From NCBI GenBank assembly GCA_963933835.1, contig CAWVVV010000001.1:384001-448000 (forward strand): a stretch of 64,000 nt of DNA. The letters run 5' to 3'. Below, piece after piece: positions 25,451-57,422 of this stretch. A program made the translations under genes and the position numbers. Position 1 is the stretch's first letter. Every line of letters begins with the position of its first letter. The notes beneath the pieces were generated by a model, which ran no database searches, had not been told where the DNA came from, and saw only the letters and a program-made list of their open reading frames with translations. The DNA is from an uncultured Puniceicoccaceae bacterium. GTDB lineage: Bacteria; Verrucomicrobiota; Verrucomicrobiia; Opitutales; Oceanipulchritudinaceae.

Positions 25451-26320
25451 CTACACCCCAATCGGGTGCCAGGTGGTCTTGTATTCGATAAAGTCTTTGA
25501 TCGCGTAGAGTGAAGGCGGCGCTTCGGCCAACCATTGAGCGCGCGTTTTAGACGTGCGCACCTTCAAGCGCTTCATGCTCTCGGCGGCATAGATTTGAGC
25601 CTGCTTCGCTGCTTCACTCTCAACCGTAAGATCAAGCCCGCGCACATGCTCGTGGGTCGTCATTGTTTCGAGAAGCTCGTCGGCTGAACCACTGAGAAGG
25701 TTTACGACACCACCCGGCAGATCAGAGGTCGCGAGCATTTCTCCAAGGAGGATGGCAGGATAAGGATTCTTCTCCGAAGCCAACGCGATAATGGCGTTGC
25801 CCGATGTAATGACTGGAGCGACCTGCAAGATGAGCCCGAGCAGTGACGCCTCTGCTGGAGCAATGGCGCAAACCACGCCCATCGGCTCAGTGACGGTAAA
25901 GTTAAAAAACAGCCCAGAGACAGGGTTGGTGTTACCTAGCACTTGCGCATACTTATCCGTCCATCCCGCGCAGTGCACGAGGCTATCGATCGCTGCACTC
26001 ACTTCGACCTCAGCCTGCTTGGCAGTCACTCCGCCAGTGAGGCGCACCGCCCCAACAAGCTCTTCGGCACGTGCTTCCATCATCTCTGCCAGACGATATA
26101 AAATCTGCCCGCGATTGTAGGCCGTCCGAGCGGCCCACGCGCCGCCAGCCTTCGCCGCGACTTCGACCGCGTTGCGCACATCCTTGCGCGAACAAACGGG
26201 CACATTGCAGATAAACTCCCCAGAAGCATCTTCGAGCGCACGAACACGTCCACTCTCGGAGCGTATGAACTTTCCGCCTACATAGGCTTTAGGGGTCTTG
26301 GTGATAGGTAAACGAGTCAT
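25451..26320 (-). CDS. Short aldehyde-dehydrogenase-family protein (NAD-binding part only)
   Basis: YVGGKFIRSESGR, YNRGQILYRLAEM, EPMGVV, DLPGGVVNLLSG, KTTWHPIG; lacks ELGGK and the catalytic Cys. Confidence 0.85.
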   Translation of the reverse strand: MTRLPITKTPKAYVGGKFIRSESGRVRALEDASGEFICNVPVCSRKDVRNAVEVAAKAGGAWAARTAYNRGQILYRLAEMMEARAEELVGAVRLTGGVTAKQAEVEVSAAIDSLVHCAGWTDKYAQVLGNTNPVSGLFFNFTVTEPMGVVCAIAPAEASLLGLILQVAPVITSGNAIIALASEKNPYPAILLGEMLATSDLPGGVVNLLSGSADELLETMTTHEHVRGLDLTVESEAAKQAQIYAAESMKRLKVRTSKTRAQWLAEAPPSLYAIKDFIEYKTTWHPIGV

Positions 26321-26338
26321 GATATATACATTAAAGGG

Positions 26339-26758
26339 TTAACCACGGATGGACACAGATTCTAGAACTCCTAGGACGACGCGTTTCCACTGCCGTTTAG
26401 GATGCTTAAAATTGAGGATGAGACCAATCTTGAGCTTTGTAATGCGAAGGTAGTTCATCATTTGACCAACTTCATTATCACCGATTGGGTCGATGACTTT
26501 AGTATCTACGACGACTGTATTCTCAATAATCAGATCAGGAATAAAAAGCCCAACAGAACTTCCCTTATAGCTGATTTCGTATTGATTTTGCTGGGCAACA
26601 TCTAAAGCGCGCAGACCTAACTCAATAACCAAAGCGTTCTCGTAAGGCTTCTCGTGAAGCCCATGACCCAATCCATTCAAAACATCGAACGCAGACCCAA
26701 TAACATCTTTAGTCAGCGTTTCATGCTGTAGTAAAGATCCGTGTGTATCCGTGTTCAT
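26339..26758 (-). CDS. GxxExxY protein (PD-(D/E)XK-like)
   Basis: LGHGLHEKPYENAL, PDLIIENTVVVDTK, QMMNYL, GLILNF. Confidence 0.9.
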   Translation of the reverse strand: MNTDTHGSLLQHETLTKDVIGSAFDVLNGLGHGLHEKPYENALVIELGLRALDVAQQNQYEISYKGSSVGLFIPDLIIENTVVVDTKVIDPIGDNEVGQMMNYLRITKLKIGLILNFKHPKRQWKRVVLGVLESVSIRG

Positions 26759-26768
26759 CCGTGGTTAA
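26339..26768. mobile_element. Inverted-repeat-bounded GxxExxY cassette (putative)
   Basis: TTAACCACGGATGGACACAGAT (26339-26360) matches the reverse complement of 26747-26768 at 20/22; inserted between two aldehyde dehydrogenase genes. Confidence 0.6.
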
Positions 26769-26780
26769 AGGTTTTTAAGC

Positions 26781-28277
26781 TTATAAAATCTTCAGGTAGT
26801 CAGCGACGCCCTGCTTGCCGCCTTCGCGCCCGAAGCCACTGGATTTGTATCCACCGAACGGTGACGTCGGATCGAATTTGTTGTAGGTATTGGCCCATAC
26901 GACACCCGCTTTAAGCGCGGTGCTCATCTTGAGGATTTTTGAGCCCTTATCTGTCCAGACACCAGCAGAGAGACCGTAAGCCGTATTGTTCGCCTTTTCG
27001 ATCGCTTCACTGACGGTGCGGAAAGTGAGAACACTGAGAACAGGCCCAAAGATTTCTTCGCGGGCGACACGGTGACTTTGAGTGACACCGGTGAACAGTG
27101 TCGGGCGGAAAAACCAGCCCGTCTTTGGCAAGGCGCATGAGCTTTGATACATCTCGGCACCTTCCTTAACGCCCGATTTTACGAGTTCGGTGATTTTCTT
27201 AAACTGCTCTTCAGAATTAATCGCTCCGATGTCGGTGTTCTTATCGAGCGGATTCCCCACACGCAGCGTAGCGATGCGTTGCTTTAGCTTTTTGATGACT
27301 ACATCAGCAACCGACTCCTGCACTAGCAATCGACTACCCGCGCAGCAAACATGCCCTTGGTTGAAAAAGATCCCATTTATAATGCCTTCAACTGCTTGAT
27401 CCAGTGGGGCATCATCAAAGACGATATTGGCAGCCTTGCCGCCGAGTTCGAGGGTCAGCCCCTTACCTGTGCCAGCGACCGACCTCATAATCGCCTGACC
27501 AACCGCCGTAGATCCAGTGAAAGCGATCTTCTTCGCGGTCGGGTGGTTGGCGATCATCTCGCCTGTTGCACCGGCACCAGTGACGATATTGACGACGCCC
27601 GGAGGCAGGCCGGCATCGCGAAAGATTTCGGCCATCTTCAGCGCCGTGATCGAAGTCGTCTCCGCAGGCTTAAGAACCACGCAATTCCCAGTCGCCAACG
27701 CCGGGGCGATTTTCCACGCGAGCATGAGGAGCGGAAAGTTCCACGGGATGATCTGCCCAACCACACCATAGGGCTCGGTCTTCGCACCGGGCACAGCATA
27801 CTCGAGCTTGTCCGCCCAACCGGCGTAATAGAAAAAGTGGGCCGCAGCCATCGGCAGATCGAAATCGCGGGACTCCTTGATCGGCTTACCTCCATCCATC
27901 GTCTCCGCGACAGCGAGCTCGCGCGAACGATCCTGAATGAGTCGCGCGATACGGTAGAGGTATTTGCCGCGTTCTTTGCCCGACATGTCTCGCCAGACAG
28001 AGTGGTAGGCTTTGTCCGCGGCTTTGAAAGCAGCATCTATATCACTTTTCCCTGCGGCTGAAATCTTTGCCAGAACCTTACCTGTCGCAGGGTTGATCGA
28101 ATCAAAATACTTCCGGCTCTTCGGTGCAACGAATTGGCCGCCGATAAAGAGATCGTATTTATCTTTGATCGCTGGCTTAGCTGATTCCGGGGCTGGATCA
28201 AACTCCCAAAGGTCTCCGAAAAGAAGTTCAGGGGTAGCACGGCGGCGAGAAGATGAAGTTGTTTTTGTCTTAGCCAT
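26781..28277 (-). CDS. Aldehyde dehydrogenase
   Basis: IIPWNFP, FTGST, LELGGK, FFNQGHVCCAGSR, EEIFGPV, PFGGYK. Confidence 0.93.
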   Translation of the reverse strand: MAKTKTTSSSRRRATPELLFGDLWEFDPAPESAKPAIKDKYDLFIGGQFVAPKSRKYFDSINPATGKVLAKISAAGKSDIDAAFKAADKAYHSVWRDMSGKERGKYLYRIARLIQDRSRELAVAETMDGGKPIKESRDFDLPMAAAHFFYYAGWADKLEYAVPGAKTEPYGVVGQIIPWNFPLLMLAWKIAPALATGNCVVLKPAETTSITALKMAEIFRDAGLPPGVVNIVTGAGATGEMIANHPTAKKIAFTGSTAVGQAIMRSVAGTGKGLTLELGGKAANIVFDDAPLDQAVEGIINGIFFNQGHVCCAGSRLLVQESVADVVIKKLKQRIATLRVGNPLDKNTDIGAINSEEQFKKITELVKSGVKEGAEMYQSSCALPKTGWFFRPTLFTGVTQSHRVAREEIFGPVLSVLTFRTVSEAIEKANNTAYGLSAGVWTDKGSKILKMSTALKAGVVWANTYNKFDPTSPFGGYKSSGFGREGGKQGVADYLKIL

Positions 28278-30948: not shown

Positions 30949-31026
30949 AAGAGAGAGGGGAATTCAGCCTATGGAAATAAAAAAGACGCTTTCCCCACTC
31001 CGATCTATCGCCCTACTCTGTGTGTC

Positions 31027-31605
31027 ATGGCGAAGCTCTACTTCTACTACAGTGCAATGAACGCAGGGAAAACGACCGCACTTTTGCAGAGTGACTATAA
31101 TTACCGCGAGCGGGGCATGCACACTGTCCTCCTCACCCCCTCAATCGATGACCGCGAAACGATCGGTAAAATTCGCTCCCGGATCGGCTTAGAAGCGGAC
31201 GCCACACCCTACGACGCGCAGACCGACATGAAGGCCTTCGTCAAAACGACCCATGACTCCAAGCCCGTCGATTGCGTCCTCGTCGACGAGGCCCAGTTTC
31301 TGACCAAGCAGCAGGTCCTTGAGCTCACTGATCTCGCTGACTTTCACGATATCCCTGTCCTCTGCTACGGCCTGCGGACCGACTTTCGCGGCGAACTCTT
31401 CGAAGGGAGCAACTACCTGCTCGCATGGGCCGACGACATCAAAGAAATCAAGACGATGTGCCCTTCCGGTCGCAAAGCTACGATGGTTCTGCGCGTCGAC
31501 CAGGAGGGCAATGTCCTGCGCGAAGGCTCCCAAATCGAGATCGGCGGCAACGAACGTTATATCTCTGTCTCTCGCCGTTTCTTCAAAGAAGGACGCATAG
31601 AGTAA
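31027..31605 (+). CDS. tdk: Thymidine kinase
   Basis: [37 protein letters not shown]. Confidence 0.95.
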
Positions 31606-31614
31606 CTGTTTTGG

Positions 31615-31770
31615 AACCACAAAAGGCCCACAAAGCCTTCATGATTCCTAAGCCAACTTCTGCTCAGATCTGCATCGCGCGAGTATCCGTGATTTTCCGT
31701 GTGCATCCGTGGTTAATTTAATCCCGAGCACGCGCACCATACATTATTCATCATTCACAATTCATCCTTT
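31615..31770. repeat. Cargo-less copies of the GxxExxY-type (10-mer) and four-helix-type (7-mer) repeat arms
   Basis: ATCCGTGATT-TTCCGTGTGC-ATCCGTGGTT-AA at 31685-31716; ATTCATC-ATTCACA-ATTCATC at 31746-31766. Confidence 0.65.
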
Positions 31771-31802
31771 CCCTTACTCACTCCCCCACCTAGCTTCCCA
31801 CC

Positions 31803-33227
31803 ATGCTCGAAAACCTGACTGATCGGCTCGGAAAAGCCCTCCGCAATCTCCGTGGAGTTGGCAAGCTGACTGAAGAAAACATGGCCGAAAGCCTGCAGGA
31901 AGTGCGTAAAGCGCTCCTCGCCGCCGACGTCCATTTTCGGGTCGCACGTGACTTCATCGAACGGGTCAAAACCGCCGCCGAAGGCCAAGACGTGCTCAAG
32001 TCCGTCTCGCCCGGCCAGATGATCGTCAAGATCATCAACGACGAGCTCACGGACCTCCTCGGCGAAGGCACGACCGAGCTCGTTGATAAGAAGCACCTGC
32101 GCATCATGCTCCTCGGACTGCAGGGCGCGGGTAAGACCACTCTCGCCGGCAAGCTCGCCCTCCACCTCCGCAAAAAAGGCTTCACCAAGCCCGCCCTTAT
32201 TGCCTGCGACGTCTACCGCCCAGCCGCCATCGATCAGCTCGAAACGATCGCGAAGGCAAACGACTTTCTCTTTTACGGCGACCGCACGACCAAGGACGTC
32301 AACAAGATCGGCAAACAAGGCTGGGAATGGGCCAAGAGCCAAGACGCCGACGTCATCATTTTCGACACCGCTGGCCGCCTCCAGATCGACGAAGACATGG
32401 TCAAGGAGGTCGCCCGACTTAAGGACACCGTCCTCCCCGACGAAATCCTCCTCGTCGGCGACGCTGCCCTCGGACAAGAAGCGGTTAACGTCGCGAAAAG
32501 CTTTAATGAACAAGTCGGTATAACTGGCATCGCTCTGACTAAGCTCGACGGTGACACCCGAGGGGGTGCTGCCCTCAGCATGAAGGCGATCACGGGCGTC
32601 CCGATTAAGTTCCTCGGCACTGGCGAGAAAACCGAAGACCTCGAAGTCTTTCACCCCGACCGCCTAGCCCAGCGCATCCTTGGCATGGGCGACGTTGTCT
32701 CCCTCGTCGAAAAAGCGCAGGAAGTGGTGAACGAAGAAGACGCCGTGAAGATGGCGGAGAAGATGCAGCGCGCCGACTTCAACTTCGAAGACTTCCTCGG
32801 CCAAATGCAGGCGATTAAGAAAATGGGCTCCCTCGGCGGCATTATGAAAATGATGCCCGGCATGAGCGGCGTCGAAGTCGGTGACAAAGAAGAGAAGAAG
32901 CTCAAGCACACCGAAGCCCTCATCCTTTCAATGACGCCAAAAGAGCGTCACAACCCACAGATCCTCAACGGCTCGCGCCGCGCCCGCATCGCTCGCGGTG
33001 CTGGTCTCGGGATCAAAGACCTCAACGCCCTGATCAAGCAGTTTCAGCAAATGAAAAAAATGATGAAGATGATGAAAGGCGGCAAAGGCCGAAAGATGAT
33101 GAAAGCGATGGGCAAAAAAGGTGGCGGTGGCTTCCCAGGAGCCGGCGGTGGTGGTGAATTCCCCGACCTCGGTGCTCTCGGCGGAGGCGGCATGGGCGGC
33201 GGTGGACTGAATCTTCCTGAATTCTAA
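31803..33227 (+). CDS. ffh: Signal recognition particle protein
   Basis: [45 protein letters not shown], Met-rich M domain. Confidence 0.97.
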
Positions 33228-47456: not shown

Positions 47457-48470
47457 TTGGATACATCACGAAAACTTCTTCAGGTCCGCGACCTCGTCTC
47501 TGCCTTCGACACTGACGACGGCCAAGTCACCGCTGTTGACCGCGTAAGCTTCGAGGTCGAAGCGGGAAAAACTCTCGGTATTGTCGGTGAGTCTGGCTGC
47601 GGGAAAAGTGTGACAGCATTCTCATTGATGCGTCTTCTTCCCCAGCCGATGGGTAAAATCCTCGAAGGGGAGATCCTTCTCAATGGGGAGGATATTTTGA
47701 AGCTTCCCCCCAAGGAAATGCGCAAGATCCGGGGCGAAACAATTGGGATGATCTTTCAAGAGCCGATGTCTGCGCTCAATCCGGTGCAACGCATCGGCAA
47801 GCAGATGAGTGAGGTCTACGAGCTCCACCGATCGAAGATGTCGAAGAAAGAGACCTGGGAGGCTTCGATCGAAATGCTCCGAAAGGTGGGAATCCCCTCT
47901 CCCGAACTACGCATCGGAGACTTCCCGCATAAGCTTTCAGGTGGGATGCGCCAGCGCGTCGTCATCGCCATGGCCCTCGCCCTCAAGCCCAAGCTCGTCA
48001 TCGCAGATGAGCCGACGACTGCACTCGACGTCACGATACAGGCTCAAATTCTTGATCTCATGAAGTCACTTCAAGCGGAGATGGGGATGGGGCTCATCAT
48101 GATAACACACGACCTCGGCGTTATCGCTGAAACCTGTGATGATGTTGTCGTCATGTATGCAGGTCGGGTTGCAGAAAAAGGAAGCGTCGAGCAGATTTTC
48201 CACCATCCTCAGCACCTCTATACGAAAGGTCTTCTCAATTCGATCCCCCGACTTGATCACCCCGCCAAGACACCTCTTTCGACCATTCCTGGCCTCGTCC
48301 CCAGCCTCAGCCAAATGCCGGTCGGCGCCCGCTTCGCCCCACGCTCCTCGCACCCAGAAGTAAAAGAATACTTAGCCTCCGAAGCCTTTAGATCCAAGCG
48401 CCCTGAACTCGTTGAAGTGGAGCCAGGTCACTGGGTCGAAGATGAGAAGGTAGTGAGGAATTTTGAATGA
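47457..48470 (+). CDS. Peptide ABC transporter ATP-binding protein (OppD-like)
   Basis: GESGCGKS, LSGGMRQR, ADEPTTALD; TTG start. Confidence 0.93.
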   Translation: MDTSRKLLQVRDLVSAFDTDDGQVTAVDRVSFEVEAGKTLGIVGESGCGKSVTAFSLMRLLPQPMGKILEGEILLNGEDILKLPPKEMRKIRGETIGMIFQEPMSALNPVQRIGKQMSEVYELHRSKMSKKETWEASIEMLRKVGIPSPELRIGDFPHKLSGGMRQRVVIAMALALKPKLVIADEPTTALDVTIQAQILDLMKSLQAEMGMGLIMITHDLGVIAETCDDVVVMYAGRVAEKGSVEQIFHHPQHLYTKGLLNSIPRLDHPAKTPLSTIPGLVPSLSQMPVGARFAPRSSHPEVKEYLASEAFRSKRPELVEVEPGHWVEDEKVVRNFE

Positions 48471-48962
48471 TGAATAATGAGTGATGAATGGACAGTAGAT
48501 GACGAAGCATTCGATTTTCCTGCTAGCGTCGAAGAGGAGTGCTCCAAATACGGAGGAAGGAATATCCCAACACGGACCAAGCAATTTGCGCTTAGGATCG
48601 TGAAGGTAGCACAATCCCTCCCCCACTCGAACGCCAGCCGACACTTTGCCGACCAGCTCATGCGTTCAGGAACATCCGTCGGCGCCCATCTGCATGAAGC
48701 CAGACGCTCTCGGTCAGATGCAGAAATGATTAGTAAAATTGGAATCGCCCTCCAAGAGCTCGACGAAACTGACTACTGGCTGTCTCTCACCATTGGTGCT
48801 CAACTCCTGCCTCTCGAACGACTCTCAGCTCTCAAGGCAGAAATCCAAGAGCTCATCGCCATTCTCACCACATCAAGCAAAACCCGTAAATCCCGCCGAA
48901 AACAAAAGTAGACTACGCGTTACAGCAGCTAATTCATCACTCAGCATTCATCATTCAAAATT
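48459..48962. mobile_element. Inverted-repeat-bounded four-helix-bundle cassette (putative)
   Basis: 31-bp arms 48459-48489 and 48932-48962 are reverse complements at 29/31. Confidence 0.65.
48477..48911 (+). CDS. Four helix bundle protein (23S rRNA IVP / Avd-like family)
   Basis: RTKQFALRIVK, DQLMRSGTSVGA..HEA, SKIGIALQELDETDYWL. Confidence 0.9.
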   Translation: MSDEWTVDDEAFDFPASVEEECSKYGGRNIPTRTKQFALRIVKVAQSLPHSNASRHFADQLMRSGTSVGAHLHEARRSRSDAEMISKIGIALQELDETDYWLSLTIGAQLLPLERLSALKAEIQELIAILTTSSKTRKSRRKQK

Positions 48963-57345: not shown

Positions 57346-57405
57346 AATAGCGTTTTCTAATTTTTATTGGTGAGGTTGAAATTCAGACACCTAGACGGAC
57401 CATTC

Positions 57406-57422
57406 AGCATTCAATATGCCAA
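57406..57422 (-). promoter_or_regulatory. Sigma-54 (-24/-12) promoter of amtB-glnB
   Basis: Minus strand TTGGCATATTGAATGCT, which is GG-N10-GC, about 60 bp upstream of the amtB ATG. Confidence 0.75.

Follow-up and report, generated by a model that had tools for sequence, protein, structure and literature searches.

The 197-nt spacer between the thymidine kinase gene tdk and the signal recognition particle gene ffh is likely to carry three decayed units without a gene, belonging to two dispersed families of hairpin repeats, and it probably has no function of its own. It lies in a 64,000-nt stretch of DNA (the window), which corresponds to C1:384001-448000 of genome G000 (1.94 Mb, 97% complete, 10 contigs). 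Two of the units, the CACAAA unit and the TCCGTG arm, would be what is left of a short CACRRA/TYYGTG-family hairpin that enclosed no gene; alternatively, the pair could be a chimera that arose after a deletion inside a stack of units. The third, an ATTCA array, would belong to the TGAAT/ATTCA heptamer family, as a 3' arm without its partner. When intact, both families consist of inverted arrays of short tandem words that lie exactly between genes and form long stems, and a minority of copies enclose a small gene (GxxExxY in CACRRA-type arms, four-helix-bundle in heptamer arms). The coordinates of the features are collected in Table 1.

Table 1. Features of the tdk-ffh spacer, its host genes and the related elements in the window
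Feature	Position	Strand	Description
Full cassette 1, GxxExxY gene at 26339-26758	26339-26768	-	TIGR04256 at 118 bits, PF13366; inverted arms 26339-26360 and 26737-26768
tdk (thymidine kinase)	31027-31605	+	NF003300 at 287 bits, PF00265; upstream host gene
Putative degenerate 5'-type unit, CACRRA family	31615-31635	+	AAC-CACAAA-N5-CACAAA; reads AACCACAAAAGGCCCACAAAG; begins 9 nt past the tdk stop codon
Inter-arm stretch, putative former loop	31636-31684	+	49 nt; TCTGC-N5-TCTGC at 31659-31673
3'-type arm, CACRRA/TYYGTG family	31685-31716	+	Reads ATCCGTGATTTTCCGTGTGCATCCGTGGTTAA; three TCCGTG at period 10, GGTTAA end
Solo 3'-type arm, heptamer family	31746-31766	+	ATTCATC ATTCACA ATTCATC; reads ATTCATCATTCACAATTCATC; ends 36 nt before the ffh start codon
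Proximal ffh leader	31767-31802	+	CACCTAGCTT block, common to congener G001 (alignment)
ffh (signal recognition particle protein)	31803-33227	+	TIGR00959 at 558 bits; downstream host gene
Full cassette 2, four-helix-bundle gene at 48477-48911	48459-48962	+	TIGR02436 at 85 bits, PF05635; 31-nt inverted heptamer arms 48459-48489 and 48932-48962
Solo two-unit heptamer array, further copy in the window	57402-57413	+	ATTCAGCATTCA

An earlier note on this DNA had placed three motifs in the spacer, and the sequence read-out confirmed each of them with its exact string and position. From the tdk stop codon, the spacer runs through 9 nt, the CACAAA unit, 49 nt, the TCCGTG arm, 29 nt, the heptamer array and 36 nt to the ATG of ffh. 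The arms of both families are built of tandem short words, CAC or TGAAT-type on the 5' side and GTG or ATTCA-type on the 3' side, and the spacer units share this feature. The two 3'-type units do copy the arms of the two cassettes in the window, as the note had proposed: 28 of the 32 bases of the TCCGTG arm are the same as in the GxxExxY cassette's right arm, and the heptamer array agrees with the arms of the four-helix-bundle cassette at 18-19 of 21 (2-3 mismatches). With up to three mismatches allowed, the 21-mer of the heptamer array had 4 matches against 0.00 expected (100 shuffles). TCCGTG-N4-TCCGTG, with up to one mismatch, had 5 against 0.41 expected from shuffles. Chance resemblance of these two arms is excluded.

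The CACAAA unit, a two-word array with a period of 11, had been described as a degenerate opposite arm. Other arrays of the genome hold units like it (CCACAAAAGGCACAAAA), and by its words it is plausibly a 5'-type unit of the CACRRA family. From the intergenic density of such arrays, the chance of a CACAAA array lying within 100 nt on the correct side would be ~1-2%. The unit does not pair with the 3' arm: the two have only the AACCAC/GTGGTT end in common and, because the 5' arm now reads CACAAA and the 3' arm TCCGTG, they no longer pair. The 49-nt gap between them is a typical loop length of gene-less hairpins with this arm in other genomes (18-124 nt), which points to a former short hairpin whose arms drifted between word sub-families. 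The TCTGC doublet in this gap is possibly a further decayed 3'-type unit. For the heptamer array, a TGAAT partner is absent both from the spacer and upstream of tdk. We also rejected two other arrangements: tdk as 'cargo', given that partner arms are lacking upstream of tdk, and the TCCGTG arm plus ATTCA array as one composite repeat, given that the linkers of four stacked loci fail to align convincingly.

No ORF with a family match occurs between the three motifs, consistent with the earlier observation that no gene lies between the arms. An Rfam search of 31000-32200 at E up to 1 returned a single noise match, to a mammalian lncRNA model.

To place the spacer units, we surveyed the gene-bearing cassettes of the genome. 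Profile searches identified 7 GxxExxY genes and 2 four-helix genes in G000, and all nine (9/9) are bracketed by their own complementary arms of 2-4 tandem words. The words vary by copy (CACGGA, CACGAA, CGCGAA, CGCAGA and CACAGAG, with ATTCATC or AATCCTAATC at the four-helix genes). In the window, the arms of the GxxExxY cassette consist of TTAACCACGGATGGACACAGAT and an inverted partner with a CATCCGTGGTTAA end. Its neighbours are two co-directional minus-strand ORFs, 25451-26320 (289 aa) and 26781-28277 (498 aa), which may be separate genes or the parts of one that was interrupted. The four-helix cassette, with arms of TGAAT/ATTCA heptamers, sits exactly between two ABC ATPase-like ORFs.

Both motifs occur well above background in a census based on an ORF-based gene map (1762 genes, 87.6% of the genome coding). 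Arrays of at least two TYYGTG words at period 8-10 number 83, of which 66 are intergenic, against 10-17 for three control words. Heptamer arrays of the TGAAT/ATTCA type (ATTCAnnATTCA) number 36, of which 30 are intergenic, against 0-2 for controls. The arrays of both families group into 62 clusters, in several of which CACRRA-type units are stacked or nested within long spacers on contigs C3 and C4; several CACRRA hairpins are gene-less. The 13-mer CATCCGTGGTTAA occurs 11 times at 10 loci in 1.94 Mb, where ~0.06 occurrences would be expected by chance (an estimate assuming uniform bases), and only one of the 10 loci flanks a gene. Gene-less heptamer hairpins account for at least 7 clusters, with loops of about 12-75 nt. 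Heptamer 5' arms start between -17 and +7 nt from the upstream stop codon in 6 out of 6 paired cases, and heptamer 3' arms mostly end 8-60 nt ahead of the next start. TGAATGA-type 5' arms contain TGA in all three frames as well as ATG, and they start at or near the upstream stop, as in aaaTGATGAAT (C1:15865, 338042 and 380012; C2:182371, 344630 and 346417; window 48459-48489). Because such an arm starts at the upstream stop codon or within a few bases of it, the hairpin fills the intercistronic gap almost exactly.

We examined orientation in co-directional spacers. The earlier note had pointed out that the spacer arms have the same orientation relative to transcription as in the full cassettes. 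This is true at the site, but it is uninformative for paired arms because the CAC...GTG layout is identical on both strands. Likewise, the 5' type precedes the 3' type in 14 out of 14 co-directional spacers that hold both arm types; this layout reads identically on both strands, so the order reflects hairpin topology, not polarity relative to transcription. An orientation bias of solo arms was not borne out, with 5 versus 4 in the CACRRA family and 7 versus 2 in the heptamer family (p=0.18).

Several further observations were made on these repeats. The ends of the TCCGTG sub-family are unequal, with CACGGA-CACAGA-CACTGATCTGATCAAC on the left and exact TCCGTG repeats on the right. Its members have the same polarity on the contig plus strand at 10 out of 10 loci, all in regions of negative GC skew (including C1:88521, C1:249393, C1:382506, C3:15340, C3:18642, C3:289741, C4:170014, and window 26339-26768 and 31685-31716). 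Genes on either side run in both directions, and no copy lies in a positive-skew region. This polarity may be a rule of orientation linked to replication, or nothing more than common descent. At C1:88521-88713, an outer CACGGA/TCCGTG pair surrounds an inner CGCAGAG/CTCTGCG pair, and the same nested hairpins occur in the Verrucomicrobiota records L056 and L071. Some 1.5 kb ahead of the window, at C1:382300-382530, a TCCGTG arm follows a run of ~11 C, and the upstream ORF of the gene map runs through the arm and ends at the TAA of GGTTAA. This may be due to a frameshift or an error of assembly, or the arm itself may provide the stop codon. One 1.4-kb spacer, at C1:116145-116735, has several copies of another palindromic repeat (GCGGACCGGCAGGAGCCGGTCCCTCCA-like) with arms of 27-36 nt, which has no relation to the word-periodic arms.

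The spacer folds no better than shuffled controls, with z of -1.35 (plus strand) and +0.07 (minus strand), or -1.3 to -2.1 with a second script. Out of 11 intact gene-less hairpins folded on the sense strand, 9 reach z of -4 to -11; those at C1:380005 (z -3.4) and C2:105090 (z -2.5) fold less well. The long stem from terminal inverted repeats that is present in both full cassettes of the window is absent from the spacer. The ~145-nt block with the three units would be transcribed in the ffh leader, or in a tdk-ffh co-transcript, with the family stem unformed, and this copy is most likely inert. We also compared A.C with G.T mismatches as an indicator of the folding strand and found no signal in 31 inverted pairs (18 vs 13) and counts of 17 vs 11 in the 26 pairs of negative-skew regions.

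We compared the locus across 30 relatives. The ffh gene is present in all of them (30/30), and tdk lies upstream of it in congener G001 only. The G001 tdk-ffh spacer is ~66 nt long and has no arms: the ~145-nt block with all three units is missing, and the ffh-proximal leader (CACCTAGCTT) is conserved. With this single syntenic relative, the comparison fits a gain of the block in the present lineage as well as its loss from the congener. Arrays like those of the spacer are absent from all 29 other ffh loci, 3 of which have other short word repeats upstream. No GxxExxY or four-helix gene was found within 1.5 kb of ffh at these loci (0/29), which gives no support to cargo at this site in relatives. 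Elsewhere in these genomes the genes are common. Of the 30 relatives, 18 have GxxExxY genes and 19 have four-helix genes. GxxExxY copy number ranges over 0-8, with 8 in one congener and none in the other, and the cassettes have the same arm design. Both genes are present in 15 relatives, GxxExxY only in 3, four-helix only in 4 and neither in 8 (Fisher p=0.009), a co-occurrence to be read with the caveat that the relatives are not independent and that genome size is a confounder. A 3.3-kb region of one relative, G012 (L051, C4:115256-118573), contains two four-helix cassettes and one for GxxExxY, together with a further small gene and several arms that have no gene, and one of the four-helix genes has about a dozen tandem GGAGGGC/GGAGGAC heptamers per side.

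We then searched other genomes for the same arms and found at least 126 stretches with the exact TCCGTG-N4-TCCGTGGTTAA arm. Among the 80 matches listed, 43 are Verrucomicrobiota by record title, and the rest comprise Betaproteobacteria, Bacteroidota, Treponema, Leptospiraceae, Acidobacteriota, Chloroflexota, Nitrospirota, Planctomycetota and others. Among these listed matches, a CACRRA array lies within 300 nt upstream in 29 out of 73 testable loci, with loops of 18-124 nt, and downstream in 0 out of 73. A profile search detected neither GxxExxY nor four-helix genes at the 80 listed loci (0/80); the same profiles recover 7/7 GxxExxY and 2/2 four-helix genes in G000. The heptamer arm occurs in at least 125 stretches of other genomes from many phyla and, among the matches listed, has a TGAAT partner upstream in 17 out of 63 loci and downstream in 0 out of 63. 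Out of its 80 listed loci, 4 have a four-helix gene (three independent places) and none has GxxExxY (0/80). One of the three places is a cultured Verrucomicrobium record, in which the gene is boxed by long arrays of related heptamers. The record of Thalassobacterium maritimum (L191), a cultured carrier, has a four-helix cassette with these heptamer arms. With 17 specified bases and 596 Gb, ~70 chance hits are estimated, so some of the partner-less hits may be due to chance.

These results bear on the claim that the two cassette types are linked into one system. The two types do have common ground in their design, their niche, their pile-ups in some spacers (e.g., G012) and their presence in the same genomes. 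Elsewhere, however, each arm type comes with its own cargo or mostly with none: with 80 loci listed for each, TCCGTG arms were never found with four-helix genes or ATTCA arms with GxxExxY genes. That each arm type keeps its own cargo argues against one shared system.

The earlier note had read the spacer units as scars or non-autonomous derivatives at a shared insertion hotspot. Gene-less derivatives or relatives of cassette arms is an adequate description, whereas scars of lost cargo are unsupported. Under the scar hypothesis, full GxxExxY and four-helix cassettes once sat at a common hotspot, and their genes were deleted while the arms were left behind. The near match of the spacer arms to the arms of both genes in the same window would fit this history, as would the mixed pile-up within 3.3 kb in G012 and the presence of both arm types, in the same order, in three or four spacers of the genome. 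We consider it very unlikely nonetheless. The 5' and 3' units come from different word sub-families, the heptamer arm has no partner, and inverted arms would offer no direct homology for a clean interior deletion. Genome-wide family searches placed no TIGR04256 or TIGR02436 match in the spacer and no coding remnant is evident, although the 49-nt and 29-nt stretches between the units are too short for such a test. A hotspot was not supported by the distribution of the families either: both occur in 2 out of 1238 spacers, against a length-weighted expectation of 1.43 (P=0.43; unweighted P=0.08). These 2 spacers are from the strict gene map, and two loci identified by eye (C1:382506 and a degenerate one at C1:383460) would not make the excess clearly significant. 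Cargo is absent near ffh in the relatives, as described above, and rare at the listed loci of other genomes (0/80 and 4/80), just as CATCCGTGGTTAA flanks a gene at one of its loci in G000. Since the gene-less form is the rule for both arm types, in this genome and across phyla, deriving the arms as scars is the less economical direction.

Two other explanations give the arrays a role at ffh. They could be retained because they act on the ffh mRNA, for instance by tuning the start of translation as an AU-rich heptamer tract without structure, or by offering a site for processing or binding. The heptamer array lies 36 nt ahead of the ffh ATG in sense orientation; in co-directional spacers, 6 out of 8 heptamer arms without a partner end 10-60 nt upstream of the following start codon, and solo heptamer arms are mostly forward (7 forward and 2 reverse). 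The spacer is also unchanged in a contig of run X4, which covers 31207-31782 without a difference; X4 was not itself flagged as a possible source of this DNA but shares its study with two runs that were. Against such a role, the forward bias is non-significant, the congener expresses ffh from its 66-nt array-free spacer, and the arrays are missing from all 29 other ffh loci, 3 of which have other short word repeats. Scans of the spacer detected no promoter-like site and one weak terminator-like stem versus 0.5 expected. We therefore regard a leader function as quite unlikely, and keep it under consideration because forward TAACTGA repeats before start codons provide a precedent for which a translation role has been suggested, in the part of that work considered here (MacGregor 2015, PMC4679880). 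The three identical TCCGTG hexamers could alternatively form an operator, at one site per helical turn, for a regulator of ffh, e.g., of the OmpR/PhoB type. Their exact 10-bp phasing favours this idea. Phased direct repeats are typical of OmpR/PhoB-type response regulators. However, the same words make up the inverted arms that flank a gene 5 kb away and recur in the spacers of unrelated genes, the identical arm is spread over many phyla, where it usually forms half of a hairpin, and it is absent from the congener's spacer. An operator is extremely improbable.

On a broader hypothesis, it would be the arms that spread and persist, with the small genes as occasional, arm-specific passengers and the solo 3' arms in leaders kept for an effect on the downstream mRNA. 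The arms would then constitute a cross-phylum family of self- or host-propagated hairpin repeats. Near-identical arms (TCCGTG words in a 10-nt phase with GGTTAA, and ATTCATC heptamers) are indeed found in Verrucomicrobiota, Proteobacteria, Bacteroidota, Acidobacteriota, Spirochaetota, Chloroflexota and others. Taken jointly, these propositions are unlikely, and we put them forward tentatively. Returning to decayed units of two families, the reading that we prefer, we infer that the units spread as mobile or recombining DNA. No joints across the spacer or the GxxExxY cassette were present in contigs of four marine-metagenome runs; contigs are blind to rare alleles, so this result is uninformative on mobility.

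We compared the units with known repeat systems. REP and REPIN sequences, which are associated with RAYT transposases, are short, dispersed intergenic inverted doublets that form hairpins, cluster and are mostly non-coding. The arms described here are likewise short, dispersed, intergenic, hairpin-forming inverted doublets and mostly non-coding. Unlike REPs, they consist of tandem words and not of single imperfect palindromes, and some copies carry a nuclease-fold or four-helix gene instead of lying beside a RAYT. The Y1/RAYT transposase family (PF01797) had no match in G000 (97% complete), with a control search positive in 6 out of 14 genomes. MITEs are short gene-less units with terminal inverted repeats that outnumber gene-bearing forms, and gene-less inverted-repeat units also outnumber gene-bearing ones here. 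A MITE would call for a matching transposase, which the searches did not turn up, and for a target-site duplication, of which there is no clear sign; the cargo genes are not known transposases. In G000, PF00665 (rve) and PF07282 (TnpB) had no matches, and PF01609 (DDE) matched one fragment at the edge of contig C8; genomes assembled from metagenomes often lack IS elements. The arms showed no consistent target-site duplication, and TTAA ends are confined to one sub-family.

The intervening sequence (IVS) in helix 45 of the Coxiella burnetii 23S rRNA has terminal inverted repeats that form a 28-bp stem cut by RNase III, and tandem GACAGAT heptamers in variable number beside the start of a decaying S23p/four-helix-bundle ORF, according to the portion of the report compared here (Warrier et al. 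2016, PMC4990558). Such ORF-bearing IVSs are the published system closest to the present elements. As far as that portion describes it, the IVS resembles the four-helix cassette of the window, with its inverted-repeat stem, tandem heptamers and four-helix ORF in the loop. The spacer units differ in that they lie between the protein-coding genes tdk and ffh, outside 23S rRNA, and lack an ORF or a stem. GxxExxY cargo and words with a 10-nt period are features of the present elements that have no counterpart in the parts of the IVS accounts compared. By analogy with the IVS, for which this account demonstrates RNase III cutting, intact members may form RNA stems in operon transcripts that are cut by the same enzyme.

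The second precedent, and the nearest description of solo heptamer arrays, concerns TAACTGA heptamers, which, in the sections of the study considered, form sets of 2-6 in Beggiatoaceae, Cyanobacteria and Bacteroidetes, almost all intergenic, and mostly forward and near start codons (PMC4679880). The same sections suggest a role in translation, report shorter, repeat-free spacers in close relatives, and describe a patchy taxonomic spread with no evident transfer mechanism. The three tandem heptamers of the tdk-ffh spacer are similar to the sets so described in being forward and 36 nt before the ffh ATG; the heptamer itself differs. TAACTGA sets are direct repeats, with 1 inverted case in 170 sets in that part of the study (PMC4679880), whereas the arrays described here normally form inverted pairs, and hence hairpins, sometimes around a gene. 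A literature search, in which subscription journals were mostly uncovered, returned no paper in which these arms flank GxxExxY genes or form gene-less hairpins outside rRNA.

The tdk-ffh spacer itself is a minor relic, but it informs a larger and apparently undescribed family of hairpin cassettes, and it shows that leaders of essential genes can retain solo arms in a decayed state. GxxExxY proteins and the '23S rRNA IVS protein' are very large protein families without known function. If the arms are indeed the propagating unit, both families would gain a concrete genomic context for tests, and the rRNA intervening sequences, long without an explanation, would be a special case of a general intergenic element.
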